A DNA stretch of 64,000 bases, from contig JAFGMW010000116.1 of NCBI GenBank assembly GCA_016927275.1, positions 1,456 to 65,455 on the forward strand, in the 5' to 3' direction. The notes beneath the pieces are model-generated. The model was given only the letters and a program-made list of their open reading frames with translations, was not told where the DNA came from and did not search any database. Both the position numbers and the translations under genes were made by a program. How positions within the stretch are numbered: the first letter of the stretch is position 1; every line of letters begins with the position of its first letter. Shown here piece by piece: positions 15,475 through 62,985 of this stretch. The DNA comes from Pseudomonadota bacterium (GTDB taxonomy: Bacteria > UBA10199 > 2-02-FULL-44-16 > JAAZCA01).

Positions 15475-15568
15475 CTGAGAACCCCTTGAGAAGCTAGAAG
15501 CCAGACGCTAGAAGCCAGATAAAAACAGGTGTCTTAGGCTCTGGCATCTCAATTCTAGCATCTAGCCT

Positions 15569-16852
15569 CTAGCTTCTGCATATCTTCTTCACACCCGCCA
15601 TATGCGGCACAAGCGCCTCGGGCACGGTCACCGAGCCGTCGGCCTCCTGATAGTTCTCGAGTATGGCGATGAGGGCGCGGCTTATCGCGACCGCGGTGCC
15701 GTTGACCATGTGCACGTGAATCGGCCTCTTCTCCCCCTCTCGCCTGAAGCGGATGCCGAGCCTGCGGGCCTGGTAGTCGGTGCAGTTGGAGGTGGATGTC
15801 ACCTCGCCGAACTCCCCGCCCTCGCCGCGTCCGGGCATCCACGCCTCCAGGTCGTATTTGCGGTACGCCGGCCCGCCGAGGTCGCCGGTGCAGATGTCCA
15901 TGACGCGGTAGGGGATGCCCATCGCCTGGAAGAGGTCCTCCTCCATCCGCACGAACTCCTCGTGCGTGCGTTCCGATTCCTCCGGTGTCGTGAAGGCGAA
16001 CATCTCGACCTTGGAGAACTGGTGCACGCGGTAGAGCCCCTTGGACTCGCGGCCCGCGGCGCCGGCCTCGGTGCGGAAGCAGTGCGAGACCCCCGCGTAG
16101 CGGAGCGGGAGATTCGCCTCGTCGAGCACCGTGTCGGAGAGCATCCCGCCGAGGGTGATCTCCGCGGTGGCGATGAGGCAGAGGTCGGTGTTCGCCACCG
16201 AGTAGATCTGGGTCTCCTCGCCGCGCGGGTTGAAGCCTATGCCGTCGAGGATCGACTCGCGCGCCATGTCCGGCGTCGCCACCGGCACGAAGCCGGCCTT
16301 GACAAGCCTCTGGAGCGAGAAGTTGATGAGCGCCTGCTCCAGCAGCACCGCCTCGTTCTTCAGGTAGTAGAACTTCTGGCCCGCGACCTTGGCGCCGGTC
16401 TCGAAGTCGATGAGATCCAGCCTTGCGCCGAGCTCGAGGTGGTCGAGAGGCCTGAAGCCGAACTTTCGGGGCTCCCCGTGCCTGCGGATCTCGCGGTTGC
16501 CCTCTTCGGTTGCGGCCACAGGCGCGTCCGGGTGCGTCATGTTGGGGATCGATCGCATGAGCGAGTCGAACTCCGCTTCGATCTGCGCGACCTGCGCCTC
16601 CGCGTCCTGGATCTCGGCCTTCTGCGATTTGCCCTCCGCGATGAGCCTCTCGCGCTCGGGCTTCTCCATCCCGCCCTTCATTCTGGACGAGAGGTCGTTG
16701 AGCGCTCGACGCATCTCCTCGAGGCGCGTGATCGCCTGCCTGCGCCCCTCGTCGAGCGAGGTGAAGCGGTCCAGATCGACCCTCGCGTTTCTCGCCAGGC
16801 AGTTGGCCCTGACGGCGTCGAGGTTCTCGCGTATGAATTTGGGATCGAGCAT
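15569..16852 (-). CDS. serS: seryl-tRNA synthetase
   Basis: N-terminal coiled coil followed by class II aaRS core motifs (FRTEAG..., GIPYRVMDICTGDLG, NGTAVAISRALIAILENYQ). 427 aa. Confidence 0.95.
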   Translation of the reverse strand: MLDPKFIRENLDAVRANCLARNARVDLDRFTSLDEGRRQAITRLEEMRRALNDLSSRMKGGMEKPERERLIAEGKSQKAEIQDAEAQVAQIEAEFDSLMRSIPNMTHPDAPVAATEEGNREIRRHGEPRKFGFRPLDHLELGARLDLIDFETGAKVAGQKFYYLKNEAVLLEQALINFSLQRLVKAGFVPVATPDMARESILDGIGFNPRGEETQIYSVANTDLCLIATAEITLGGMLSDTVLDEANLPLRYAGVSHCFRTEAGAAGRESKGLYRVHQFSKVEMFAFTTPEESERTHEEFVRMEEDLFQAMGIPYRVMDICTGDLGGPAYRKYDLEAWMPGRGEGGEFGEVTSTSNCTDYQARRLGIRFRREGEKRPIHVHMVNGTAVAISRALIAILENYQEADGSVTVPEALVPHMAGVKKICRS

Positions 16853-16864
16853 AAAATAAAACCA

Positions 16865-16937
16865 GGCTGAGGCTGAGGTTTAGGTTGAGTGACCTTATAA
16901 CTTAACCTAAACCTTAACCTAAACCTAAACCTAAACC
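16865..16937. repeat. hexanucleotide tandem-repeat hairpin element, (GGCTGA/GGTTTA)n facing (TAAACC/TTAACC)n
   Basis: Left arm ggctgaggctgaggtttaggttgag and right arm cttaacctaaaccttaacctaaacctaaacctaaacc are mutually near-complementary hexamer arrays. Located between the DsbA-like gene and serS. Confidence 0.7.
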
Positions 16938-16942
16938 TTCAA

Positions 16943-17941
16943 TTATCGACTCAACTCTGTTTCAATTATCTCCTTGAACGATCCGTAGGGCTGGGCTCCG
17001 GACAGAAGTATACCGTTGATGAAGAAGGTCGGCGTCCCGTTCACTCCGGCCTGCATGCCCTGCGCGACCGATTTCTCCACCTCGGCCGCGTGCGCTCCGC
17101 TTTCGAGGCACTCGCCGAAGGCGCCGGCGTCGAGCCCGAGGTCCTTCGCGAGGCTCTTCATGTCCGCCACGGACATCCTGCTCTGGTTGTCGAATATCTT
17201 TTTGTTGAAGTCGAAGTATTTGCCCTGATCCCCCGCGCAGCGGGCGGCCTCGTGGGCCTTCTTCGCGTCCTTGTGAAATGAGAGAGGGAAGTCCATGAAG
17301 ACGTACCTGATCTTGCCGTCGTACTCCTCGAGCAGTTTCCAGACGGTGGGCCTCACCCTCTGCGAGAACGGGCACTGGTAGTCGGAGAACTCCACGATGG
17401 TGATCTTGCCGCTGCCCGTCTCGGGGGCGCCGGCGAACTCCACCTCCACCCTGGGCGGGCTGAGCAGCACCTTCACGTTCGCGTCGGAGCGCAGCCTCGC
17501 GAGAAGCTCCGCGCGGGCGCGCGCCATTCGGTTGCCTACGAGGTAGTCGCGTATCTGGTCCTTCACCTCGTCGAACGGCTGTTTCATGGCGCCCTTGCGG
17601 GCGTCGTAGAGGGCCTTCACCTCCTCGTCGGTCGGGCGGTTCACCTTGGCCTCTATCTCCTGCCTTATGAACTCGTCGGCTGAAAGCCCCTTCTTCTTGG
17701 CCTCCAGGGCGATGATCTTCTCCTCGATCAGGCTGTCGAGCACCGTCTTCTTGATCTGGAATATCTGCGTCTCGACCCTCATGAGCTGGTCCTTCGAGGC
17801 GGTGTTCAGCTCTCCCATGGTGATGGTCTCGCCGTTTATCGTCGCTGCGGGCGACCTGTCGCTCTGAGGCTGCGGGCCGGTACCGGAGCAAGCGGAAAGC
17901 GCTAGGCATGCCGCCAACGCAAACAACAGAAATCTCTTCAT
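16943..17941 (-). CDS. DsbA-family thioredoxin-fold lipoprotein with SurA-like N-terminal domain and CxxS (CPFS) active site
   Basis: Signal peptide with lipobox LALSAC. The thioredoxin domain (FSDYQCPFSQ, with CPFS checked against the DNA) precedes a GTPTFFING tail. The N-terminal region resembles a SurA/PpiD chaperone domain. Confidence 0.7.
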   Translation of the reverse strand: MKRFLLFALAACLALSACSGTGPQPQSDRSPAATINGETITMGELNTASKDQLMRVETQIFQIKKTVLDSLIEEKIIALEAKKKGLSADEFIRQEIEAKVNRPTDEEVKALYDARKGAMKQPFDEVKDQIRDYLVGNRMARARAELLARLRSDANVKVLLSPPRVEVEFAGAPETGSGKITIVEFSDYQCPFSQRVRPTVWKLLEEYDGKIRYVFMDFPLSFHKDAKKAHEAARCAGDQGKYFDFNKKIFDNQSRMSVADMKSLAKDLGLDAGAFGECLESGAHAAEVEKSVAQGMQAGVNGTPTFFINGILLSGAQPYGSFKEIIETELSR

Positions 17942-18117
17942 GATTTTCCTCCCCAGCGTTTCGGGCGAATGATTTGTTCAAAGATCGCGGAAGGTTAGAC
18001 CATGCCGGCGCCGCTTGCAACGGAAATTGAGCGATTCCCCGGGCGAGGCTATTGACACGAAACCCGGCGAAATATAACAGTTGCCGCCCAAATCCGGACC
18101 CCTACGCTGAAAGGAGC

Positions 18118-19449
18118 ATGCAGATGGAAAAGAGGAGATGGCTCGTGGTGGTCGGCGCCATGCTGGTGCAGCTGTGCCTGGGAGCGATCTACGCGTGGTC
18201 GGCATTTACCAAGCACCTGACGCTTCCGCCTTACGATTTCAACAGGACCCAGACGCAGGCGATCTTCTCGCTGGGGCTGCTCTCGTTCGCGGTCGTCATG
18301 GCCCTGATCGCCGGGAAGTGGCAGGCGAAGGTAGGCCCCCGCAGGGTGGCGCTGGTCGGAGGCCTCGTCCTGGGCGCAGGCTACGTCATGGCCGGGCTTT
18401 CGGGGGCAAGCTTCTACGGGATGCTCATTGGGATCGGCCTCCTCGGCGGCGCCGGAATAGGCCTGGGCTATGTCTGCCCGATCGCCGCGCTCGTGAAGTG
18501 GTTCCCTGACAAGAAGGGGCTCATCACCGGGCTTGCGGTCGCGGGTTTCGGGTTCGGCGCCCTGATCTGGATCAAGCTCACGAGCGGTTTCGAGTTCGGG
18601 CCGCTGAACCTCACGCCCGGATGGGCGGGGCTGTTCGGTGACGGCCTTTCGGTCAATCAGATATTCATCCTCTACGGCATACTCTTTGCGGCGATCGTGG
18701 CGCTCGGATCGACGATGCTCGTCAATCCCCCCGATGGGTTCAGGCCCGAAGGCTGGACGCCGCCGACCGATTCAAGGGCCGCGCTGACCGGCGGGATAGA
18801 CTTCACCGTCTCCGAGATGGTCCGCACCTCGCAGTTCTGGGGTCTGTTCTTCATCTTTGCGGTGGGTGCCACTGCAGGCCTCATGGTGATAGGGGTGATC
18901 AAGCTATTCGGAATGGAAGCGCTCGCAGCGAGAGGGGTGGACGATCTCCGCGCCGGTGTGATCACCGGCACGGCGATGGGCCTGTTCTACGCCCTGATGA
19001 ACGGCCTCGGCCGTGTGGCATGGGGCTTCATCTCAGACAAGATCGGGCGCAGGGCGTCTATCGCGGCCATGAGCCTTTTGCAGGGCGTCACGATGATCGC
19101 TTTCTATTACACCGGCGGCACGGAGACGGGGCTCTACATAGGCTCTGCGATCGTCGGCTTCAACTTCGGCGGCAACTTCGCACTCTTCCCTGCGGCGACC
19201 GCCGACTTCTTCGGCAACAGGAGCGTGGGCACGAACTACCCTTGGATATTCATGTCCTACGGCCTTGGGGGGCTTGTCGGGCCGCTGCTCGGCGGCGCGA
19301 TGGGCGACGCCAGGGTCTGGATGTGGGCGTTCATACCTGCTGGGGTAGCGTGCCTGGCCGCCGGCGTGGTCGCGCTGAGGCTGCGCTCGCCCCATCACAA
19401 GGCCGTGATGGCAAAGGGCGGCGCGGCTTTGTCGGCACAGCCCTCCTGA
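18118..19449 (+). CDS. MFS transporter, oxalate/formate antiporter (OFA) family-like
   Basis: ~12 predicted TM segments and the OFA-type N-terminal motif LGAIYAWSAF. Start taken at MQMEKRRW. Confidence 0.8.
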   Translation: MQMEKRRWLVVVGAMLVQLCLGAIYAWSAFTKHLTLPPYDFNRTQTQAIFSLGLLSFAVVMALIAGKWQAKVGPRRVALVGGLVLGAGYVMAGLSGASFYGMLIGIGLLGGAGIGLGYVCPIAALVKWFPDKKGLITGLAVAGFGFGALIWIKLTSGFEFGPLNLTPGWAGLFGDGLSVNQIFILYGILFAAIVALGSTMLVNPPDGFRPEGWTPPTDSRAALTGGIDFTVSEMVRTSQFWGLFFIFAVGATAGLMVIGVIKLFGMEALAARGVDDLRAGVITGTAMGLFYALMNGLGRVAWGFISDKIGRRASIAAMSLLQGVTMIAFYYTGGTETGLYIGSAIVGFNFGGNFALFPAATADFFGNRSVGTNYPWIFMSYGLGGLVGPLLGGAMGDARVWMWAFIPAGVACLAAGVVALRLRSPHHKAVMAKGGAALSAQPS

Positions 19450-19571: not shown

Positions 19572-21731
19572 GTGGGGGAGAGAATCGGGGTCCTGGTGAT
19601 AAGGCGTGCTTTTTCAGCCGCAGCGCTTCTGTTCGTGGTCCTCTCGGCATCGGCGCTCCACGCAAACCCCAAGATAGACCCCTATCTGGACAGCTCGTCC
19701 GCCGATCCCGATTTCAAGGCGCTTTCCATAAGCGCCCCCCTTCCGAAGCCCGCCGATGATCCGCCGGTGGAGGTCTTTGTAAAGGCCTCCGATGTCGGCG
19801 CGGCGGCGGATCTGATATCTTCGCTCGGCGGCAGCGTCCGCGTGACCTCCGGTTCCGTGATCACCGCTTCCATTCAGGCGTCGGGCCTTGAGGACCTCGC
19901 AGGATCGGAAGACGTGGTCTTCATCGAGGCGGCCAAGCCGGTCGGTTTATCGAGCGACCTCGCGGGCGCCGAGATAGGCCTGCCGGAGGTGAGCGCCGGC
20001 ATGGGGCTGCCGGCCGGATACACCGGCGAAGGGATCGTCATCGGCATCGTGGACACGGGCGTCGATTATTCTCACCCGGATTTTCTGGATTCCGAGGGGC
20101 GCAGCCGCGTGCTCGCCATATGGGACCAGGGCCGCAGCGGCGGCCCCCCGCCGGCGGAGATAGCGAACAGCTACGGCAGCGAGTGCGAGCATGAGAAGAT
20201 TTCCAGCGGCACCTGCGCCCTCACCGACGCGGACGGCCACGGCACGCACGTGGCGGGGATCGCGGCGGGCAGGCACGGCCAGTATCGGGGCGTGGCCCCC
20301 GACGCCAACATCGTCGTGGTGAAGTACGACGCGAAGCTCGACCTCGAGTCGGGCTACGCCGACACCCTGTTCTCCACCAAGATCTGCGAGGCGGCATACT
20401 ACGTCTTCGCCAAGGCGGCGAAGTACGGCGTTCCGGCGGTCGTCAACATGAGCCTCGGCACGCACCTGGGCGCGCACGACGGGACGTCGCTCTTCGAGCA
20501 GTGCCTCGCAGGCCTTGCACAGGGCCAGGCTGGCCGCGCCCTCGTGGCGGCCGCCGGCAACGAGCACAACTCGGACCGCAGCTACACCGGGATACACGCC
20601 GGGTTCGACCCTGCCGGCAGGGAACTCGCGTCGAATTTCGTGATAAGGCAGAAGACCGGCGACCGCCTCTACTACATCGACCTGTGGGGTGCCAAGGGCT
20701 CCGACATTGCGGTGGGGCTCGCGATACACAACGGCACCCCTTCCAGAGACCCGGCGCAGCGCTCCTATATGGCGAGACCGGGCGACAAGATCTCCGGCTC
20801 GTTCTACAGCGGGAAGATAAAGTATCTCATCAACGCGACGGAGAAGAGCTCGCCGCTAAACGGCAAGCCGCACGTGGGGATAAGGATTCAGCTGTCCACT
20901 GAGGTGGAGAACCCGCTGGCATACTCGTTCGACCTGGTGGTCAAGGGAACAGGCGGATTCGACGCCTGGCTCTTCCCCGACAAGCCGGCGCGGACGATGG
21001 AGTTCACCGCGATCGAGGGGAACAAGGGCGGCGCCTACGACTACGTCCCCGGCGACCGCATCAAGAGCATCGCGATACCTGCCACATCCCCTGAGGTCAT
21101 AGCGGTCGCGGCGTACGCCACCCGGACGCGCTGGGAGGCGGACTCCCTGACATGGGTATTCAACGGCCAGGAGCTCGGCGACATACTCAACTTCTCTAGC
21201 TCGGGCCCCACCGCGGACCCGGCGTTCACGGGGCAGAAGCCCGAGCTGGCCGCCCCGGGCGGCATGGTGGCGTCCGCGCTCTCCGCGAGCGCCGGCGTCT
21301 CGAGCCAGGTCATCACCGCGGACGGGAAACATTATATGCAGGCCGGGACCTCCATGGCCGCGCCGTTCGTGAGCGGCGCCGTCGCGCTCATGTTCCAGCA
21401 CAACCCGAACTTCACGCAAACGGACGTGGAGGCGTTCCTCACGCAGGGAGCGTACGCCGACTCATTCACCGGGGGCGTGCCCAACGACAGGTGGGGGGCC
21501 GGCAAGCTCGACCTGCTCAAGTCCATGGAGCTTGCGGTCAACGGGACCGCCTCGGGCAGCTTCGCGGCGCAGGGATCGGTCTCCATCCCCTCCGGAGACG
21601 GGGGAAGCGGCGGATGCGAGATGATCGCCTCGGCCTCGGGCGCGGGAAGCCCTGCGGCATTGGTTATCGCAGCGGCGCTTGCGCTGTGCGCCATGGCTTG
21701 GAGGAAAAGGACCGAGACATCGATTCGGTGA
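19572..21731 (+). CDS. secreted subtilisin-like serine peptidase (S8) with a C-terminal GG-Cys-TM-RKR sorting-signal-like tail
   Basis: Signal peptide plus the S8 catalytic triad: GIVDTGVD (Asp), HGTHVAGIAAG (His), GTSMAAPFVSGAVAL (Ser). C-terminus is GGSGGCEMIASASGAGSPAALVIAAALALCAMAWRKR. Confidence 0.9.
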   Translation: MGERIGVLVIRRAFSAAALLFVVLSASALHANPKIDPYLDSSSADPDFKALSISAPLPKPADDPPVEVFVKASDVGAAADLISSLGGSVRVTSGSVITASIQASGLEDLAGSEDVVFIEAAKPVGLSSDLAGAEIGLPEVSAGMGLPAGYTGEGIVIGIVDTGVDYSHPDFLDSEGRSRVLAIWDQGRSGGPPPAEIANSYGSECEHEKISSGTCALTDADGHGTHVAGIAAGRHGQYRGVAPDANIVVVKYDAKLDLESGYADTLFSTKICEAAYYVFAKAAKYGVPAVVNMSLGTHLGAHDGTSLFEQCLAGLAQGQAGRALVAAAGNEHNSDRSYTGIHAGFDPAGRELASNFVIRQKTGDRLYYIDLWGAKGSDIAVGLAIHNGTPSRDPAQRSYMARPGDKISGSFYSGKIKYLINATEKSSPLNGKPHVGIRIQLSTEVENPLAYSFDLVVKGTGGFDAWLFPDKPARTMEFTAIEGNKGGAYDYVPGDRIKSIAIPATSPEVIAVAAYATRTRWEADSLTWVFNGQELGDILNFSSSGPTADPAFTGQKPELAAPGGMVASALSASAGVSSQVITADGKHYMQAGTSMAAPFVSGAVALMFQHNPNFTQTDVEAFLTQGAYADSFTGGVPNDRWGAGKLDLLKSMELAVNGTASGSFAAQGSVSIPSGDGGSGGCEMIASASGAGSPAALVIAAALALCAMAWRKRTETSIR

Positions 21732-21793
21732 AGCCTTATTTCACCGACCCCGAAAAAGGGCCCCGGCTCCTTGCGGAACCGGGGCCCGATTCT

Positions 21794-21846
21794 ATGTACA
21801 ACAAGGCTGAGGTTAAGGCTTAGGCTAAGTGGTGCTCAACCTCAAC
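21794..21846. repeat. hexamer tandem-repeat hairpin, (GGCTGA/GGTTAA/GGCTAA)n facing (CAACCT)3, between convergent genes
   Basis: ggctgaggttaaggcttaggctaag ... ctcaacctcaacctcaacctg. Sits between the protease stop (21731) and the glnA stop (21858) and likely acts as a bidirectional terminator. Confidence 0.65.
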
Positions 21847-21857
21847 CTCAACCTGAT

Positions 21858-23930: not shown

Positions 23931-24947
23931 ATGGCCATGGGGGGTAAAAAAATCAAGGTTAAGGTTAAGGCTAAGGCTAAGGCTAAGGCTAAGGTTAAGC
24001 CTAAGCCTAAGCCTAAGCCTAAACTTAAGCCTAAACCTAAGCCTAAACCTAAGCCTAAACCTAAACCTCAAGTTAAGGCCAAATTGCCTGAGTGGCCGCC
24101 CCCCCTTGAGATCTACTCTTCAACGGATCCGCTCTCTCTGATGCGCAAGGTGCTGGCCCGCTGCGACCAGGCTTTTCTATCGCGCCAGGTCTCATATTCG
24201 CTCTCCACCTCAGAGGGGCTGGGGGAGGTGTGGGTGGACGAGGAGGGGATATCCTCTGCGATGGACACCCTTCTCATGCACCTTGTTTCGCGTTCCCCTC
24301 GCAAATCGGTGATCTCCGTGCAGCTTTGCCCGTTCGCCATGCACAGCGGCTCAGGCGTTCAGATCGCCTTTGAGGCCATCGACAGGTTGATCAGGGACGT
24401 GGACCACAAGGCGTTCATGGCCTCGATCTTCGACGGGGGGGCGGACCAGGAGACCGGCGTCTCGCTCGCCGCCCTGAGGGAGAGGGTGATGGCGCAGCAC
24501 GGAAGGCTCTGGGCGGAGCTGCCGGGCGGGAACAGGACCCTGTTCAAGATAGTGCTCCCCTCGACGAGGGACGTGGCCAGGCAGGCCCTTCTCGGCCAGC
24601 GCACCTTCAGGTGCGACATCGCCATCACCAACTACCCGCTCGTGAGAAAGCGCTTCGGCCTGATGAAGGGCAGGCACCTAGTGGAGCAGGTGGAGCGCTA
24701 CGTGAAATCGCTGGTGAGGTTCCCTATCGACATGGTGACCGCGGACCTCGACGCAGGCAGCATCACCGCGATCTACGAGGCCCAGCCGGGGGCCGCGGAG
24801 TCGGTCTACTCCCGCATATCCAAGAGGCTGGGGCAGGAGACCTTCCACATCGGCAAAAGACCGGTGGAGCTCCTCTTCAGGTACGAGCTCAAGGGCGGCG
24901 CCGGCCATTCTGCGCCATCGGCCGGCCGAAACCGGGGGAAAGGCTAG
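23931..24947 (+). CDS. hypothetical protein with Lys-rich (KV/KA/KP)n N-terminal tail and a degenerate histidine-kinase-like ATPase (HATPase_c-like) domain
   Basis: Residues 7-50 (KIKVKVKAKAKAKAKVKPKPKPKPKLKPKPKPKPKPKPKP) are encoded by GGTTAA/GGCTAA/GCCTAA hexamer repeats. Downstream, ETGVSLAALRERVMAQHGRLWAELPGGNRTLFKIVLP resembles the HATPase G2 box. Confidence 0.5.
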   Translation: MAMGGKKIKVKVKAKAKAKAKVKPKPKPKPKLKPKPKPKPKPKPKPQVKAKLPEWPPPLEIYSSTDPLSLMRKVLARCDQAFLSRQVSYSLSTSEGLGEVWVDEEGISSAMDTLLMHLVSRSPRKSVISVQLCPFAMHSGSGVQIAFEAIDRLIRDVDHKAFMASIFDGGADQETGVSLAALRERVMAQHGRLWAELPGGNRTLFKIVLPSTRDVARQALLGQRTFRCDIAITNYPLVRKRFGLMKGRHLVEQVERYVKSLVRFPIDMVTADLDAGSITAIYEAQPGAAESVYSRISKRLGQETFHIGKRPVELLFRYELKGGAGHSAPSAGRNRGKG

Positions 24948-28763: not shown

Positions 28764-28799
28764 GCCTCCAAATAAGTTGCGTGACTTCTTCGACCAGAA

Positions 28800-28857
28800 A
28801 CTATCAGCTTGTTACTGGTATTCTTTTACCAGAAACTATCAGCTTGTTTCTGGTAAT
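28800..28857. repeat. 27-nt palindromic element ACCAGAAACTATCAGCTTGTTTCTGGT with an adjacent degenerate copy, each followed by a T-rich tract
   Basis: The same 27-mer recurs at 35484-35510. 9-bp arms ACCAGAAAC/GTTTCTGGT with a 9-nt loop. On the plus strand it looks like an intrinsic terminator, though no plus-strand gene lies upstream. Confidence 0.6.
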
Positions 28858-29939: not shown

Positions 29940-30360
29940 GGGGTGCAGCGCTTCCGGCCCTTTCCTCGTCGACTGGCGCGCTCGCCTCGCTACTCGTCGC
30001 GAAAAGATCGCTGGTTTCCTGGCATTTTAGCCCATGCTGTCGGTACGAGTTAGGTGTCTTCCCCTGTCAGCCTCTAACTCGTGAAACCAGCGATCTTTTC
30101 GCATCCTCATACGCTCGGTCTCGCATCCCGAGCACTCAATGCCTTGAGTGCTCGGGAGGAGCGCCTTGATGTCTCCTCCGGAAAGGGCCGGAATCGCTGC
30201 CGAACGCATGAGAGGCTGAATAGTGCCGATTTGACGGAGCGGATCGGTGCGCTCTTCGCAGCGGGGCTCACGGAGGCCGGGTGCCGTAGCCTGTTATGAT
30301 CCGGCCGACGTGGCCCAGCGAGGAGCCGGCGCTTGAGGCGACGAGCGTAGCGAGAAGAGC
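29940..30360. repeat. ~420-nt non-coding region made of nested and serial perfect palindromes (structured RNA or MITE-like element)
   Basis: 20-bp perfect inverted repeat cgcgaaaagatcgctggtttc / gaaaccagcgatcttttcgc enclosing an inner cgagttag/ctaactcg hairpin. 13-bp hairpin cccgagcactcaa-tgcc-ttgagtgctcggg. Outer imperfect IR ctcgcctcgctactcgtcgc / gcgacgagcgtagcgag. IR gcgctcttcgc / gcgagaagagcgc. Confidence 0.55.
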
Positions 30361-30418
30361 GCACCGATCCGCTCTGTCTGCAGAGCTCTTTATGGCAAAT
30401 CGGCGCAGGGGATAAGAC

Positions 30419-30724
30419 GTGTTGACCGGGGGGCGGATTGGTTATAAAGGCGGGGGCATGGCGAAGAAGAAGGCCAGGGGGCGCAGGAAACCGGCGGGCG
30501 GTTTCGATCTCGAGTTCTCGATCGAGGAGGACGGCCTGCTCCGCGGGCTCATGGACTCCAAGGGCAAGAAGGTCGAGGTCATAGCCTTCGGCATCGTCTA
30601 CTCGGGGGTCTTGGAGAGCGTGGACCTCGACGGCGGCCAGATCGTGATCGCCGACGGAGAGGACCGCGCGATGATCGAGATCGAGCGCATAGAGTCGCTC
30701 ACCCCCCTCGAAAACTACCTATGA
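30419..30724 (+). CDS. small hypothetical protein (101 aa, or 88 aa from MAKKKARG)
   Basis: ORF with basic N-terminus. Its stop overlaps the next start (ATGA at 30721-30724). Confidence 0.35.
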   Translation: MLTGGRIGYKGGGMAKKKARGRRKPAGGFDLEFSIEEDGLLRGLMDSKGKKVEVIAFGIVYSGVLESVDLDGGQIVIADGEDRAMIEIERIESLTPLENYL

Positions 30725-31092
30725 AGCGGGCCGCGGCGGTCTCACTTGCACTGTTTGTCATCGCATCCTCTCTCTGCGCGCTGGCGGGGGAGCAAGGAGG
30801 GGCCGCATCCGCGCGGGCGGAGGAGTCGGGGTTCGCGATCATTATCCTCGGCACGCGCAGCGCGGCCGACGTGAGGGTCATCGAGAAGAACCTGCGCTCG
30901 CTCCCGTACGTATCGCTCATGGTGCCCACGGTCATGAGCCAGCAGCACCTCGAGTTCCAGGGCAGGATGAGCGCCTCCGACGAGGCCATGGTCGCGGACG
31001 TGGCAGGGCTTGCGCAGGACCGCTACGAAGTGAAGGCCCGCCGCGAGCACAGGCGGGGGCTGGTGATAACGCTGAGAAAAATCAAGGGATGA
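30721..31092 (+). CDS. small secreted hypothetical protein, 123 aa
   Basis: N-terminal signal peptide MKRAAAVSLALFVIASSLCALA. Translationally coupled to the preceding ORF. Confidence 0.4.
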   Translation: MKRAAAVSLALFVIASSLCALAGEQGGAASARAEESGFAIIILGTRSAADVRVIEKNLRSLPYVSLMVPTVMSQQHLEFQGRMSASDEAMVADVAGLAQDRYEVKARREHRRGLVITLRKIKG

Positions 31093-31160
31093 GAGGCTGA
31101 GAGGCTGAGAAGCTGAGAGGCTGAGAAGCTGAGAGGCTGAGAAGCTGAGAAGCTGAGAAG
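31088..31160. repeat. (GAGARGCT)9 octamer tandem repeat
   Basis: gagaggctgagaggctgagaagctgag... begins at the stop codon of the upstream small gene. Every unit contains TGA, so stops occur in all three frames. Confidence 0.7.
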
Positions 31161-31172
31161 CAAAGAAAAGGC

Positions 31173-31200
31173 CCTGCTGAGCAGGGCCTTGTTTTTTGCT
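31173..31200. terminator. bidirectional Rho-independent terminator between convergent genes
   Basis: aaaaggccctgc-tgag-cagggcctt-gttttttg: GC-rich 9-bp stem with an A-tract upstream and a T-tract downstream. Confidence 0.7.
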
Positions 31201-35483: not shown

Positions 35484-35510
35484 CATGCAGTCGACTACCA
35501 GAAACTATCA
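35484..35510. repeat. second copy of the 27-nt palindrome ACCAGAAACTATCAGCTTGTTTCTGGT
   Basis: Identical to the copy at 28831-28857. Followed by ttattggtttgtatttg (T-rich). Lies between the cstA stop and the start of FG-GAP lipoprotein 2. Confidence 0.6.
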
Positions 35511-35522
35511 GCTTGTTTCTGG

Positions 35523-44332: not shown

Positions 44333-44401
44333 ATCCGTGACTCGTGACTGGCGCAAGCACGCTAGTCACTAGTCACTAGTCACGAGTTGCCAGTCACGGC
44401 T
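44333..44401. repeat. inverted tandem-repeat hairpin built from GTGACT units between convergent genes
   Basis: cgtgactcgtgactggcgcaagcacgctagtcactagtcactagtcacgagttgccagtcacgg. Left GTGACTCGTGACTGG is complementary to right CCAGTCACG. Central (TAGTCAC)3. Confidence 0.6.
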
Positions 44402-45870: not shown

Positions 45871-45876
45871 GCACCA

Positions 45877-45925
45877 ATGACCAAATTCCGAACTGAGCCT
45901 TTGTTCGGTCATTGGTTATTTGGAA
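45877..45925. terminator. hairpin plus T-rich tract after cutA (likely bidirectional with the convergent peptidase gene)
   Basis: ccaatgacc-aaat-tccgaac...gttcgg-tcattgg followed by ttatttggaatttgttatttgg. Confidence 0.55.
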
Positions 45926-45953
45926 TTTGTTATTTGGTGCTTGGAGTTTGCGG

Positions 45954-46990: not shown

Positions 46991-47830
46991 ATGAAGGAGC
47001 TGATAAAGAAGAGGGCGATCGAGGTCGGTTTTGCGCTGTGCGGGGTGACCACGGCCGAGCCGGTCGATGAGCTTGCGCATCTGCAGGGGGCGATTGCAAA
47101 CGGCAGGGTCGCCTCGATGAACTATCTGGCGCGCGACCCTGCGGCGCGCTGCGACCCGCGTTCGCTCCTCGCCGGCGCGCGCTCGGTGATATGCTGTGCG
47201 CTTGCGTACGGCGAATCGGGGATCGGCGACCGGGGATCGGGGACCATGGATCGGGAAAGCTCTTTCAGGTCCCGGGTCCCGGGTCCCGGGTCCCGAGTTT
47301 TGAGGGCCAGGTTCGCGCGCGGGGCCGAGTATCACGCGGAGGTGGGGCGGAGGCTTACGCTACTGTGGGATGCGATTCGAGAGCGGGCGCCCGGCGCCAG
47401 CGCGAAGGCCTGCTGCGACACGAGCCCGATTCTCGAGAAGGCCCTGGCACAGCGCGCTGGGCTGGGCTGGATCGGCAGGCACACGGTGCTGGTGAACCGC
47501 GAGCTGGGCTCGTGGTTCGTGCTGGGCGAGATCGTGACCGATCTCGAGCTCGAGCCGGACTCCCCGCACGATGATCTCTGCGGCGACTGCACAAAGTGCC
47601 TGGACGCCTGCCCTGCGCGCGCGATCCTCTCGCCGCGCACGCTCGACGCCCAGAAGTGCATCTCCTATCTCACCATAGAAGCCCCGCGCCTTGAGATTGG
47701 GATCGGGGATCAGGGATCAGGAACCGGGAGAACCCTTCCATGTCCCGGGTCCCGGGTCCCGGGTCCCGGGTACGGCTGCGACCTCTGCCAGGAGGCATGC
47801 CCTTATAACAATAGAGGATGCGCCCAATAG
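46991..47830 (+). CDS. queG: epoxyqueuosine reductase (QueG)-like, carrying two in-frame repeat insertions and an apparently short C-terminus
   Basis: DUF1730-like N-terminal region, then two 4Fe-4S motifs CGDCTKCLDACP and CDLCQEACPYN. Insertions at 47213-47300 and 47700-47785 are both in frame. The ORF stops 6 codons after the second cluster, whereas QueG proteins are usually ~100 aa longer. Confidence 0.7.
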   Translation: MKELIKKRAIEVGFALCGVTTAEPVDELAHLQGAIANGRVASMNYLARDPAARCDPRSLLAGARSVICCALAYGESGIGDRGSGTMDRESSFRSRVPGPGSRVLRARFARGAEYHAEVGRRLTLLWDAIRERAPGASAKACCDTSPILEKALAQRAGLGWIGRHTVLVNRELGSWFVLGEIVTDLELEPDSPHDDLCGDCTKCLDACPARAILSPRTLDAQKCISYLTIEAPRLEIGIGDQGSGTGRTLPCPGSRVPGPGYGCDLCQEACPYNNRGCAQ

Positions 47831-48136
47831 CGCCCACTCTGCCGCTTTGATGAAACGGTTCAGGGTGCTTTTCGCAGCGTGGCTCGAGCCTGCCTGCCGG
47901 CAGGCAGGGAGGCCGGATTCAGCAGCCTATAAGTACCGGCCGACGAAAGCCCCCGATGACCTTCAGACAGTCTGGTTCATCTAATGATGAAATGCCGGGG
48001 CGTGGGGACTGCGCCCCGGCCGAGACGGCGTTTGAGGCGAGGAGGGATAGCGAGAAAAGCACCTTGAACCGTTTCGTCTGCTGAGTCAGCCTTCCCAGGT
48101 TGACATGTGAACGGGGAAGGGCCTAGCGCGTGGGAC

Positions 48137-53777: not shown

Positions 53778-54214
53778 GGCGCCACTATAGGCAAGCAGGG
53801 ACCTCAAGGCAAGCCCGGCCTTATCAATCCGGAACGCATGTTTGCTTGGTTCGGCGACGGATCGGGAAAGACTGCCGAGCGGCGTCAGGAGGCGTCGCTT
53901 TCAAAGCCTATGGTGCTGCGGCGCCGAGTGCGCAGGCGAGCGAACGGCGTATGAGTGAGCGAGCCGTAGCGAGGAGGCTTTCCCGATCCGTCGCCGTGCC
54001 CGAAGCAAAAAAAGGACCCTCCAACACTATCGCTGAAGGGCCCAAAGGGGGGGGTCGAACTTTGTGACTCCCGATTTCTCTCTTCGCTTCCACAGTAGTT
54101 ATCGGCAGGGAGGGGTACCCAAGTTGCGTGGGCCGCAAAAAATTCCCACAAAGAGGTAACCATTTGTTTTAATTAAGTTTTACTGCGAAAATGGGTTTTT
54201 TTCGGCAAAAAATT

Positions 54215-56282: not shown

Positions 56283-56330
56283 CTTGCGCAGCGGTTGAGG
56301 CTGAGGTTAAGGTTGAGGCTGAGGCTGAGG
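56283..56330. repeat. (GGTTGA/GGCTGA/GGTTAA)8 hexamer tandem repeat in the divergent priA/elbB promoter region
   Basis: ggttgaggctgaggttaaggttgaggctgaggctgaggctgaggcttg. Confidence 0.7.
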
Positions 56331-56354
56331 CTGAGGCTTGAAGGGGGGATGGGA

Positions 56355-57570: not shown

Positions 57571-58938
57571 ATGAAGAAAAGGGGAGTGCTCCTATTAATC
57601 GATGATGATCGTGATTTTGCCTCCACCTTTGCCGATAGGCTGGGATCGCTGGGGTTTGAGGTGTCCGTCGCCGGCACCGCCTCAGAGGCCCTGGGTGCGC
57701 TCGATGAGGTTTCCGCCGATTGCGTGCTCGTCGACATAGGACTCCCGGACATGTCCGGAATGGAGCTCATCGGCAGGATCGCGGAGAGGGACGCGAAGCT
57801 CCCGATAGTCATGGTCACCGGCACGACGAAGATCGACACCGCGATCGAGGCGATCAAGAAGGGCGCGTACGACTACGTGGTAAAGCCCATCGATTTCGAC
57901 TCCCTGCTCATCAAGCTCGGAAACGCCGTGGAGTCGCGCCACGCGTTTCGAACCATAGCTCACTTCGAGCAGGAGGTTGCGAAGGAGCACGGCTTCGGCC
58001 GGTTCGTGTTCCGAAGCGAGCTCATGAATGGGACGGTGGAGCATCTGAAGCAGCTTGCCGAGACGGACGCCACTGTCCTCATCACGGGCGAGAGCGGAGT
58101 GGGCAAGGAGCTGGCGGCGAGGACGATACACTACAACGGTCCGCGCAGGCTCCGGCCGTTCGTGCCTGTGAGCTGCGCCGCGGTGCCCGAGACCCTCATC
58201 GAGAACGAGCTCTTCGGGCACGAGAAGGGCTCGTTCACCGACGCGTTCGAGAGGCAGCCGGGCAAGTTCGAGCACGCGGCCGGCGGCACCATATTCCTCG
58301 ACGAGATCGGGGACCTCTCCCCCGGCATACAGACCAAGCTTTTGCGGGTGCTCCAGGAGAAGAAATTCCACAGGATCGGCGGGGTCAACGAGGTGAGCGT
58401 CGACGTCCGGGTGATCGCAGCCACCAACAGGGACCTGGACGAGGCGGTGAGGAAGAACGAGTTCAGGTCGGACCTCTTCTACAGGCTCTCGGTGCTTCCC
58501 GTGCGCATGCCCTCTCTCAAGGAGAGGGGGGAGGACATCATCCCTCTCGCGCGCCACTTCCTGGGTATATTCTCCAGGAAAGTCGGCAAGCGCTTTGAGC
58601 GTTTCTCCAAAGAGGCGGAGGAGAGGCTCGCCGCATACCCCTGGCCGGGCAACGTGAGGGAGCTTCAGAACGCCATAGAGCGGGCCGCCGTCTTCGGCCG
58701 GCCGCCGGAGATCAGAGACGACGACCTCGCGCTGGGCAGGATCAACGGGATCGTCACGGCACCCGCCCCGGTCGAGGAGCCGCTGCCCGATTCGCTCGAT
58801 GAGCTGGAGGCGCTTCACATAGGGAGGACGCTGGGCAGATTCCAGGGCAACATATCCAAGGCCGCCGCGGCGCTCGGCATCGGTCGCGACACACTGTACC
58901 GGAAGATAAGGCAGTACGGAATCAAGCAAAACACGTGA
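57571..58938 (+). CDS. sigma-54-dependent response regulator (NtrC family)
   Basis: Receiver domain (LLIDDD...VLVDIGLPDMSG). AAA+ sigma-54 activator core (GESGVGKELAARTIH, GHEKGSFTDA resembling GAFTGA, ESELFGH-like). C-terminal Fis-type HTH. Confidence 0.9.
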   Translation: MKKRGVLLLIDDDRDFASTFADRLGSLGFEVSVAGTASEALGALDEVSADCVLVDIGLPDMSGMELIGRIAERDAKLPIVMVTGTTKIDTAIEAIKKGAYDYVVKPIDFDSLLIKLGNAVESRHAFRTIAHFEQEVAKEHGFGRFVFRSELMNGTVEHLKQLAETDATVLITGESGVGKELAARTIHYNGPRRLRPFVPVSCAAVPETLIENELFGHEKGSFTDAFERQPGKFEHAAGGTIFLDEIGDLSPGIQTKLLRVLQEKKFHRIGGVNEVSVDVRVIAATNRDLDEAVRKNEFRSDLFYRLSVLPVRMPSLKERGEDIIPLARHFLGIFSRKVGKRFERFSKEAEERLAAYPWPGNVRELQNAIERAAVFGRPPEIRDDDLALGRINGIVTAPAPVEEPLPDSLDELEALHIGRTLGRFQGNISKAAAALGIGRDTLYRKIRQYGIKQNT

Positions 58939-59015
58939 CACGTAACCTGTGACCTGTAACCGGTGGTAAATGACAGGATGTTAGACCGGTCACGGGTCAC
59001 GTGTTACGTGTAACG
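58930..59015. repeat. inverted tandem-repeat hairpin built from GTGAC/GTAAC units
   Basis: cacgtgacacgtaacctgtgacctgtaaccgg ... ccggtcacgggtcacgtgttacgtgtaacgg. Located between the sigma-54 regulator stop and the polX start. Confidence 0.6.
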
Positions 59016-59022
59016 GTTGCCA

Positions 59023-60837: not shown

Positions 60838-62985
60838 GTGCTATCAAAACTCTTCACACCACGATCGGTGGCGGTGGTGGGGGCGTCCCGCGAGGAGGGC
60901 AAGGTCGGGCATTCCATCATGAAGAACCTGGTCGGCCACGGATTCGCCGGCCCCATCTATCCGGTCAACCCCAAGGCGAAGGACGTGATGGGGCATCCCT
61001 GCTTCAAGGACCTGAGGGACGTGCCCGACGGCTGCGACCTGGCGGTGATCGCGGTGCCAGCGAGGCTCGTGCCGGGCATCGTAGAGGAGTGCGGGCGCAA
61101 GGGGATCGGCGCCGCGATAGTCATATCGGCGGGGTTCAAGGAGGTGGGCGGGGAGGGGGCGGATCTCGAGAAGAGGCTCTTCAACGCGGCCATGACCAGC
61201 GGCGTGAGGGTGCTGGGCCCCAACTGCCTCGGCCTCATCAACACCAGGCACCGCCTCGACGTCTCGTTCGCCGCCAGCCACCCCGAGGAGGGGGACATAG
61301 CGGTGATCTCCCAGTCCGGCGCGCTGTGCACCGCGATAATAGACTGGTCGGTCAGAAACCACATAGGATTTTCAAAGCTCATAAGCATCGGCAACAAGGT
61401 GGACATAGACGAGGAGGTGCTGATCGAGGAGCTGGGCGAGGACGACGACACGAAGGTGATCGTGGGTTACCTGGAGAACATAGTCAACGGACCGCACTTC
61501 ATGCGCTCGGCAGAGCGCGTGACCAAGCGCAAGCCGATCATACTCATCAAGGCCGGCAACACGGCGGCCGGCGCCGCGGCTGCGTCGTCCCACACCGGGA
61601 GCCTCGCCGGGGCGCGCATGGCCTACGAGTGCGCGTTCCGAACCAGCGGGATATTGCAGGCGTCCTCCCTCGAGTCGCTCTTCGACTACGCCCAGGCGTT
61701 CTCCTACCAGCCGCTGCCGCGCGGCAGGAGGGTCGCGGTGGTGACCAACGCCGGCGGGCCGGGGATCATGGCCGCAGACGCGGTCGAGAACTCCGGGCTG
61801 GCGTTCGCGAAACTCGGCGACGAGACCACGAAAGCCCTCTCCTCGTTTTTGCCGGCCGCGGCCAACATCCACAATCCGGTCGACATACTCGGCGACGCTC
61901 TGGCCGAGACCTACGGCAGGGCGCTCGAGGCGTTGCTGGCCGACGACGGCGTGGACGCCGCGGTCGTGCTGCTGACGCCCCAGGCGATGACCGACGCCGC
62001 CGAGGCCGCGCGCGTTGTGGCCGGGGTCTCGGGAAGACACGGGAAACCCGTGGTCGCCTCTTTCATCGGCGCGGACCGCGTCTCCCTGGGCATAGAGATA
62101 CTGCAGAGGAGCAGGGTGCCGCACTATCCGACCCCCGAGCGCGCGGTCGAGGCGCTGCAGGTCATGGCCGAGTTCGCGAAGTGGAAGGAGAGGCCTCCGA
62201 GGGTTATCCAGCGCTTCTCGGTCAACACCACTAAGGTGGACAGGGTGCTCAACCTCTGTCGCAAGCGTGGCCAGTTCAACGTGGGTGAGCAGGACTCGAA
62301 GGCGATACTCGCCGCCTACGGTTTCACGGTGCCGAAGGCCTCTCTCGCCAGGAGCGCCGACGAGGCGGCCTCCGCCTCGGCAGCGATAGGATTCCCCGTG
62401 GTCATGAAGATCGTCTCTCCAGACATAATCCACAAGTCGGACGTGGGAGGGGTGAAGGTCGGGCTGGCCGGATCCTCGGAGGTGAGGGACGCGTACGATC
62501 TCATGATTGCCAGGATACGCCTCCGAGAGCCCCGTGCGAGGCTCCAGGGCGTTCTCGTGCAGGAGATGGTGGGCGGGGGCCGCGAGATAATCGTCGGCAT
62601 GACGCGCGACCCCCAGTTCGGCCCCATGCTCATGTTCGGGCTGGGCGGGGTCTACGTGGAGGTCCTGCGCGACGTGTCGTTCCAGCTCGCACCCATCACC
62701 CGCGACGAGGCGTTCGAGATGCTCATCGGAACCAAGACATACAAGTTGCTCAAGGGCGTGCGCGGCGAGAAGTCCGTGGACATGGAGCTGGTCGCGGAGT
62801 GCATAAGGAGGATATCGCAGCTCTCGATGGACTTCCCCGCGATCGAGGAGCTGGACATAAACCCGCTCAACGTCTCGAGCGACAGGGCCGGCGCGGTCGC
62901 GGTGGATGCGCGCATTAAAATCCGGGACTCGGGACCCGGGATTCGGAACTCGAAACTTCAGGGGTGTGACCATGGCTCAGAATGA
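60838..62985 (+). CDS. acetyl-CoA synthetase (ADP-forming) / NDP-forming acyl-CoA synthetase, fused alpha+beta
   Basis: N-terminal CoA-binding domain (SVAVVGASREEGKVG), succinyl-CoA-synthetase-like ligase domain, and C-terminal ATP-grasp domain. 715 aa. Confidence 0.8.
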   Translation: MLSKLFTPRSVAVVGASREEGKVGHSIMKNLVGHGFAGPIYPVNPKAKDVMGHPCFKDLRDVPDGCDLAVIAVPARLVPGIVEECGRKGIGAAIVISAGFKEVGGEGADLEKRLFNAAMTSGVRVLGPNCLGLINTRHRLDVSFAASHPEEGDIAVISQSGALCTAIIDWSVRNHIGFSKLISIGNKVDIDEEVLIEELGEDDDTKVIVGYLENIVNGPHFMRSAERVTKRKPIILIKAGNTAAGAAAASSHTGSLAGARMAYECAFRTSGILQASSLESLFDYAQAFSYQPLPRGRRVAVVTNAGGPGIMAADAVENSGLAFAKLGDETTKALSSFLPAAANIHNPVDILGDALAETYGRALEALLADDGVDAAVVLLTPQAMTDAAEAARVVAGVSGRHGKPVVASFIGADRVSLGIEILQRSRVPHYPTPERAVEALQVMAEFAKWKERPPRVIQRFSVNTTKVDRVLNLCRKRGQFNVGEQDSKAILAAYGFTVPKASLARSADEAASASAAIGFPVVMKIVSPDIIHKSDVGGVKVGLAGSSEVRDAYDLMIARIRLREPRARLQGVLVQEMVGGGREIIVGMTRDPQFGPMLMFGLGGVYVEVLRDVSFQLAPITRDEAFEMLIGTKTYKLLKGVRGEKSVDMELVAECIRRISQLSMDFPAIEELDINPLNVSSDRAGAVAVDARIKIRDSGPGIRNSKLQGCDHGSE

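Follow-up and report, generated by a model that had tools for sequence, protein, structure and literature searches.

The window, by which we mean the whole 64-kb stretch of DNA that was analysed, has a G+C content of 63% and a gene content typical of chromosomal housekeeping. Tandem arrays of a hexamer unit lie at four loci within it, comprising two true hairpins, one translated Lys-rich tail and one single arm. The dimer pattern GGYTDAGGYTDA, searched on both strands of the whole window, gives 34 matches, against 0.12 expected and a maximum of 2 in dinucleotide-preserving shuffles of the window, and all 34 are confined to these four loci. The five tracts described in an earlier, sequence-only reading of this DNA are all present, in place or displaced by a few bases, and its view that they form a recurrent class at gene boundaries agrees with this non-random excess. 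Its count of ‘five or more’ loci for a GGYTRA family stands for the four hexamer loci, the fifth being an octamer array unrelated to the hexamers in sequence. The unit itself is better described as GGYTDA, because GGTTTA is common. According to TRF, the arrays are head-to-tail tandems, with period 6 and 3-17 copies for the hexamers and period 8 and 9 copies for the octamer. The 6-nt unit is the only feature common to the hexamer copies; loops, arm lengths and flanks vary.

Hexamer loci

On the − strand, a dsbA-like gene and serS are 90 nt apart, and the first hairpin occupies this spacer. Its G-rich arm reads GGCTGA GGCTGA GGTTTA GGTTGA (16864-16889, + strand; sequence, TRF, pattern and RNA fold) and its C-rich arm (TTAACC/TAAACC)6 (16902-16937, + strand; sequence, pattern and RNA fold). 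On the − strand, which is the mRNA strand, the hairpin starts 4 nt past the dsbA-like stop codon and is followed by UUUUAUUUU, directly before the serS ATG. The predicted fold has an energy of -31.5 kcal/mol on the − strand and -31.2 kcal/mol on the + strand. The corresponding spacer in two relatives, L001 and L003, is 21-23 nt long and without an array. A CAAAGCY heptamer hairpin is found instead in the dsbA-serS spacer of L006.

The second hairpin pairs an arm of AAGGCTGAGGTTAAGGCTTAGGCTAAG (21803-21829, + strand; sequence, pattern and RNA fold) with a complementary arm of (CTCAAC)3 (21835-21854, + strand; sequence and RNA fold), which reads (GGTTGA)3 on the − strand and begins 4 nt past the glnA stop codon. 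Directly downstream lies the canonical GC-rich glnA terminator, called by the terminator scan as a 13-bp stem followed by UUUUU (21758-21787, − strand) and conserved in L127 and L001; because it comes downstream of the hairpin, the hairpin lies within the glnA 3'UTR. RNA of the glnA sense folds at -29.6 kcal/mol compared with -20.8 kcal/mol for the antisense. Both true hexamer hairpins have the architecture (GGYTDA)n followed by its complement, with fold z-scores of -4.6 to -7.3. The proposal that several of the tracts form hairpins is correct for these two (16864-16937 and 21803-21854); the tract at 56293-56341 has no partner arm, and the two halves of the tract at 23955-24077 are complementary at five of six positions per unit.

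The latter is a coding tract, (AAGGYT)n followed by (AAGCCT/AAACCT)n (23955-24077, + strand; sequence and pattern), translated as (K-V/A)n(K-P)n in the basic N-terminal tail of ORF 23931-24947, for which a Pfam search gave no match. The basic tail and a WPPP motif are conserved in frame in L001, L003, L132 and L006, where the tail is Lys/Arg-rich. The window's own tail is homogenised to (KA)n(KP)n (23931-24140). Here it is the antisense RNA that has the more stable fold (-68.8 kcal/mol, against -52.3 kcal/mol for the sense), a reversed asymmetry that fits avoidance of structure close to the start codon.

The remaining hexamer locus is a single-arm (GGYTGA)8 array (56293-56341, + strand; sequence, pattern and RNA fold) between two divergent genes, priA (start 56242, − strand) and a DJ-1/PfpI gene (start 56355, + strand). 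No complementary arm accompanies it, and its RNA fold gives z = -0.9. At the matching position, L130 has a single CCGTTTGAGTC (CGTTTGAG).

Heptamer and octamer arrays

The hexamers are part of a larger population: TRF together with inspection of intergenic regions yields about 23 arrays with 5-9-nt units in the 64-kb window. Their density, 3.6 arrays per 10 kb, is about four times the 0.89 per 10 kb found in 887 kb of contigs with GlnA or PriA relatives, in which the median locus has 0 arrays; L128 and L006 are among the few relatives as array-rich as the window. In a unit-agnostic set, 27 of 100 arrays have a complementary partner within 120 nt.

The octamer array, (TGAGARGC)9 (31090-31161, + strand; TRF and sequence), takes in the stop codon of gene 30721-31092 with its first unit. 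It forms no real hairpin in the RNA fold and is followed by a canonical terminator called by the terminator scan (31168-31190, + strand). In L001 and L003 the stop codon bears a single TGAGAAGC copy, and the AAAGAAA behind it is identical to that behind the window's nine copies.

At least seven heptamer arrays, which the sequence-only reading did not include, are also present, with five clear hairpins among them, two of these in frame in queG. At the junction of serS and a 65-aa gene, (AGRNGCT)n and its complement (15487-15581, − strand) fill a spacer of 94 nt that measures 3 nt in L001; the TAG stop codon of serS falls within the first unit, and the sense RNA folds at -54.6 kcal/mol versus -38.5 kcal/mol for the antisense. 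Similarly, (CACGTRA/CCTGTRA)n and its complement (58932-59016, + strand) lie between a sigma-54 activator gene and PolX, with the stop codon TGA inside the first unit. This spacer is 78 nt in the window and 9 nt, without an array, in L128, which has a single GCGGTGA at the site of the window's roughly four copies. Two heptamer hairpins are found between convergent genes, namely (GTGACTN)2, loop, (CTAGTCA)3 (44337-44392, + strand) and one with a CCAAATN unit (45871-45953).

Within queG (46991-47830), a hairpin of (GGGGAYC)n, loop, (GGTCCCG)4 (47211-47297, + strand) and a second of the same (GGGGAYC)n/(GGTCCCG)4 family (47697-47772, + strand) are both in frame and make two surface loops about 8 and 13 residues longer than in the ortholog from L128. 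A single-arm (CGGGAYY)5 array (62920-62954, + strand) lies at the 3' end of the acyl-CoA ligase-like gene 60838-62985. It codes for the last residues of this protein, and the next gene, whose start overlaps, begins right after it. In L128 the orthologous protein has another C-terminus that is about as long and contains no array.

Two further repeat types were observed in the window. The first, a repeat class separate from the tandem arrays and REP-like in look, is a 25-nt palindromic unit, CCAGAAACTATCAGCTTGTTTCTGG, present in three copies with 0-1 mismatch (28794-28818, 28829-28853 and 35498-35522), where 0 copies are expected by chance; two of the copies stand in tandem as a 35-nt repeat. 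The second is a family of intergenic elements of about 160-250 nt (30225-30390, 47840-48090 and 53845-54005), bounded by terminal inverted repeats of 20-25 nt that are 92-96% complementary and sharing the internal motif …TTGAGGCGA.GAG..GTAGCGAGAAGAGC…, with nested inverted repeats also at 29945-30200. These elements have no Rfam match above noise and could be MITE-like or structured RNA.

Orthologous sites in relatives

The syntenic relatives have GlnA identities of 84-92% and DNA identities of about 70-83%; because the DNA is only this similar, insertion boundaries are approximate. Orthologous junctions in relatives are 3-23 nt long and without arrays. In the window, each of the six arrays located 3' of a gene has a first unit that either holds the upstream stop codon or starts within 4 nt of it.

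Since a single unit copy stands at the orthologous site in relatives, the octamer array and the heptamer array at 58932 grew in situ, with no insertion. The priA/DJ-1 array, too, would have grown in place from a local seed, although hexamer seeds in relatives are less clear than the octamer seed. Of the earlier idea of slipped-strand hypermutability, the slippage part offers the best account of origin, with a single copy in relatives against nine for the octamer and about four for the heptamer. Present-day hypermutability finds no such backing: the one strain pair compared, the near-identical L128 and L129, differs by 2 SNPs in 22 kb and not at all in the copy number of its eight arrays.

The glnA 3'UTR illustrates the turnover. 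It holds a hexamer hairpin in the window, AGTYACG heptamers in L127, a GTGATCG heptamer hairpin in L134 and no array in five other relatives. The presence of different arrays among relatives therefore indicates repeated de novo birth, and probably loss, at one site. The differing arrays of these relatives lie in L134 (2566-2680), L127 (1573-1625) and L006 (16308-16380 and 4580-4697), and include a pair of inverted 9-mer arrays, AACGCAAGC / TTGCTTGCC.

The units recovered suggest that the dominant unit family differs from genome to genome. L128 has its own, AAATCCT/AGGATTT (17895-17954, 21774-21833, 18730-18803 and 19990-20250). This family includes a perfect (CTAATCC)10.6 array adjoining queG, and the same genome has a GC-core hairpin, CCTCCGCGGGC-TGAA-GCCCGCGGAGG, in two 61-nt copies that are 97% identical and from which heptamer arrays extend outward.

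RNA folding and termination

Among six hairpins of known sense, the sense RNA folds better than the antisense in five and about equally in hairpin 1; a further example has -56.2 versus -39.2 kcal/mol. Moreover, the six sense folds contain 27 G·U pairs and the antisense folds 7. The fold asymmetry and the G·U bias therefore argue that the transcript, rather than duplex DNA, is the relevant molecule for the hairpins, a pattern that transcription-coupled mutation bias could also give.

Canonical terminators follow two of the arrays, hairpin 2 and the octamer. The suggestion that the tracts act as terminators does not hold as a main function at these two sites, where the canonical terminator comes after the array (21758-21787 and 31168-31190); only the 16864-16937 hairpin itself has a U-run after it. 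The terminator scan of the window called neither hexamer hairpin. In the Rfam search, only tRNAs pass the gathering score, and the E-value mode returns sub-threshold hairpins that resemble miRNA precursors.

Distribution across phyla

A scan of species-representative genomes for four GGYTDA units found at least 120 loci. The matches listed come from Bacteroidota, Nitrospirota, Omnitrophota, ‘Deltaproteobacteria’, Binatia and others, and include complete genomes. By rough ORF calls, 72 of the tracts listed are intergenic, 44 lie in ORFs and 31 at locus edges. Many of the tracts listed start at or beside a stop codon and have a degenerate complementary arm. The proposal of a genome-specific family is contradicted by this distribution, as (GGYTDA)n-loop-(THARCC)n hairpins occur in Nitrospirota, Omnitrophota, ‘Deltaproteobacteria’, Bacteroidota and others, and analogous elements are known from Geobacter metallireducens (PMC2700814). 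Nor are the tracts unique to the window, the same architecture being found in independent assemblies, complete chromosomes and isolate genomes.

Among the matches listed, 23 have their complementary arm downstream of the G-rich one and 1 has it upstream; shuffled controls gave 0 pairs. This order was seen for GGYTDA and, in the part of the G. metallireducens supplement available, for GGGACCR pairs. A general rule that the G- or purine-rich arm comes first was rejected: arrays of arbitrary units divide into 13 G-first and 11 C-first.

The candidate rule that arrays always begin at a stop codon across phyla holds only in part. The end of a long in-phase ORF falls at the array edge in 23 of 138 cases among the matches listed, a count biased by the ORF-calling logic, and long ORFs abut the listed arrays in other frames or on the other strand about as often as in phase. 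T-runs after the 31 hairpins among the matches listed are inconsistent, occurring for example in L011, L021, L076 and L101, and on this ground the idea that all hairpins are terminators was rejected. The literature search found no description of GGYTRA hairpins, and the queries on hexanucleotide-repeat hairpins and STRR stem-loops returned nothing specific.

Origin and possible role

We lean towards the view that the GGYTRA tracts are locally born slippage arrays of the 5-11-nt-unit type that fold into stem-loops in the transcript and are passive or mildly useful there. The seed would be a few bases at or beside a stop codon or Shine-Dalgarno-like sequence, the unit being readable as TRA + GG + Y. 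Replication slippage, presumed for the hexamers themselves, would then have lengthened junctions that were formerly only 3-25 nt. At two intergenic loci, a G-rich array followed by its complement would give a long, imperfect transcript stem-loop spanning the distance from the upstream stop codon to the next signal, that is, the serS start codon or the canonical glnA terminator. The complementary arm may have arisen through template switching on a fold-back or through duplication of both arms of a small stem. GGYTRA would thus be one sub-family among many 6-9-nt arrays and hairpins here, with quick turnover between relatives, and arrays would be kept mostly when they fold on themselves into a transcript stem-loop. 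With the stop codon inside the duplicated stretch, the upstream protein would presumably be unharmed, and a self-complementary insert would keep the stop codon and the next signal close together. The putative present role is that of transcribed 3'UTR or intercistronic stem-loops, passive or mildly useful. They might protect the 3' end, cause some termination at the serS junction, or hold stop and start codons near each other in a junction that has lengthened. We do not regard the hexamer arrays as mobile elements, phase-variation switches or parts of a dedicated regulatory system.

Simple local slippage nevertheless leaves two things unexplained: the occurrence of one hexamer class at four loci and in many phyla, and the 23:1 placement of the G-rich arm on the 5' side. 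Both count in favour of the arrays being multi-site platforms for a DNA- or RNA-binding protein, whether IHF/HU-like or S1-, CsrA- or Csp-like, that would dictate the unit and the arm orientation, an idea to which we assign a minor probability. In addition to the shared unit class and the arm order among the matches listed, paralleled by the (+) then (−) pairs in part of the Geobacter supplement, each genome seemingly has its own dominant unit family, and such roles have been proposed in PMC2700814 (IHF/HU) and in PMC4679880 (an RNA binder for TAACTGA repeats). However, the arrays are absent at the relatives' orthologous housekeeping junctions and the units at a given site differ, which is unlike a conserved regulon; copy numbers are irregular, as are the unequal lengths of the two arms, and the strand asymmetry indicates RNA over duplex DNA.

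Alternatively, the hairpins could be selected signals for transcription or translation, either long-stem terminators or attenuators or coupling elements melted by the terminating ribosome. Hairpin 1, with UUUUAUUUU after it and the serS start codon abutting, would suit such a role, as would the T-runs after several GGYTDA hairpins of other phyla (L011, L021, L076 and L101), the way in which the hairpins exactly fill the interval between a stop codon and the Shine-Dalgarno sequence or start codon that comes next, and the better folding of the sense strand. We consider it unlikely, because T-runs are inconsistent over the 31 hairpins among the matches listed, separate canonical terminators stand at the glnA and octamer sites, the terminator scan did not call the hexamer hairpins, and relatives run the same operons without arrays.

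A broader reading, which we hold to be quite unlikely, is that the GGYTRA hairpins are selected cross-phylum post-stop RNA elements that engage terminating or recycling ribosomes or Rho, or else arrays written by an unknown protein or copying machinery. As post-stop RNA elements of the form (GGYTRA)n-loop-(TYARCC)n, they would carry units of ‘stop codon + Shine-Dalgarno-like GG’ in the 5' arm, and the 3' arm would mimic an anti-Shine-Dalgarno, while the strict G-arm-first order would stem from their contact with ribosomes or Rho; structure-gated translational coupling and protection from premature termination would be examples of their effects.

Small non-autonomous mobile fold-back elements, REPIN- or MITE-like with tandem-subrepeat arms, that insert into junctions and even in frame would account for the roughly 70-90 nt of extra sequence in junctions that measure 3-23 nt in relatives, for the two in-frame queG hairpins, and for multiple copies with the same unit. 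The two 61-nt, 97%-identical copies of the GC-core hairpin with heptamer extensions in L128 also favour this reading. Against this, a single-copy seed is already in place at the relatives' empty site for the octamer and one heptamer; the first unit takes in the resident stop codon; and the copies have no common loops, termini or length, nor were target-site duplications seen around the hexamer copies. Mobility is decidedly unlikely overall, and it was rejected as the main explanation on the single-copy seeds at orthologous sites.

That the arrays are contingency loci, with hypermutable repeats switching the expression of neighbouring genes by phase variation, seems very unlikely to us. One array does lie in a divergent promoter or 5'UTR region (56293-56341) and another in an ORF, and the arrays clearly change over evolutionary time. 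Yet the neighbours are housekeeping genes (serS, glnA, priA and queG), most arrays are 3' of genes, and the eight arrays compared between L128 and L129 are identical in copy number; because the unit is 6 nt, copy-number change in the ORF tract cannot shift the frame. Finally, assembly artefact is scarcely credible. The source is a MAG contig, and short reads could give a wrong copy number for the 123-nt tract; but the architecture recurs in independent assemblies including complete chromosomes, isolates and the finished genome of G. metallireducens, a read is longer than most arrays, and the coding tract and the queG reading frames are intact.

Should local slippage followed by fold-back retention be the correct account, the window would provide a worked example of how tight bacterial junctions lengthen by slippage at the stop codon, with the product kept when it folds back. 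It would also join the Geobacter ‘global regulator sites’, the LSSR surveys and the TAACTGA repeats as one phenomenon in many uncultured lineages. On the practical side, such arrays can mislead gene callers (through starts and stops or the in-frame queG insertions), terminator predictors and MAG assemblers. The G-arm-first rule and the recurring ‘stop + GG’ unit are small, testable puzzles.

Comparison with known systems

REPs are conserved palindromes of 20-40 nt that are mobilised by RAYT transposases and can stabilise upstream mRNA. The window hairpins are like REP and REPIN sequences in being extragenic hairpin repeats in 3'UTRs and operon junctions, but the window copies share a 6-nt unit only and no 20-40-nt palindrome, vary in length and loop, and in at least some cases grew in place. 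Rickettsia palindromic elements, which are found in frame in protein-coding genes, are dispersed, measure 100-150 nt and have one consensus in common; they are in-frame and palindromic like the queG hairpins but, unlike them, have no tandem short-unit arrays. MITEs and other fold-back transposons differ as well, because the window arrays have no target-site duplication that could be seen and the ‘empty’ sites of relatives already hold one unit copy. The arrays also do not qualify as phase-variable contingency loci, being flanked by serS, glnA, priA, DJ-1 and queG and having, within the ORF tract, an in-frame 6-nt unit.

Cyanobacterial STRR heptamers are similar short-unit repeats. Long simple sequence repeats with units of 5-11 nt are enriched in scattered genomes, with heptamers the commonest, and polymerase slippage was proposed as the cause of such 5-11-nt-unit repeats (Mrazek, Guo and Shah 2007, via PMC4679880). 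The window arrays fit this class in having tandem head-to-tail units and in exceeding chance expectation; the survey, as summarised in PMC4679880, concerns direct arrays, and that summary does not mention inverted pairing, stop-codon seeding or G-first order. TAACTGA heptamer repeats occur in marine Beggiatoaceae, cyanobacteria and Bacteroidetes as 169 direct sets and 1 inverted set, just upstream of start codons (MacGregor 2015, PMC4679880). Like the GGYTRA arrays, they are intergenic, have short units containing stop codons and are sporadic across phyla; the GGYTRA arrays, however, mostly follow stop codons and often form inverted pairs, whereas TAACTGA arrays are almost always direct.

The closest parallel is found in G. 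metallireducens, which has paired opposite-strand sites of 3-5 tandem 7-9-nt units at variable distance (Aklujkar et al. 2009, PMC2700814). These comprise putative global-regulator sites of classes 1-3 as well as Gmet_H4xx, a set of 49 elements of four GGGACCR heptamers each, located within and between genes (PMC2700814). In part of the supplement to PMC2700814, a (+) copy of Gmet_H4xx often has a (−) copy close behind, and the closely spaced pairs given there are all (+) then (−). The authors read such elements as IHF/HU regulator sites or regulatory RNAs, without tests (PMC2700814).

The G. metallireducens elements have the same fold-back architecture as the hexamer and heptamer hairpins of the window and are likewise multi-copy, inter- and intragenic. 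The window queG hairpins even have the Gmet_H4xx unit, GGGACCR/GGTCCCG, together with the G-arm-first order seen in that part of the supplement. The source organism is only distantly related to Geobacter. The GGYTRA 6-mer matches none of the catalogued G. metallireducens units GTTGCTYN, TCTCCGTS(Y), MTYCTGA and GGGACCR. What the present comparison adds to that paper is the evidence of empty orthologous sites, of seeds in place and of strand asymmetry. The GGYTRA tracts give no sign of being a dedicated new system; they are a hexamer-unit addition to a known, poorly understood class of short-unit repeats.
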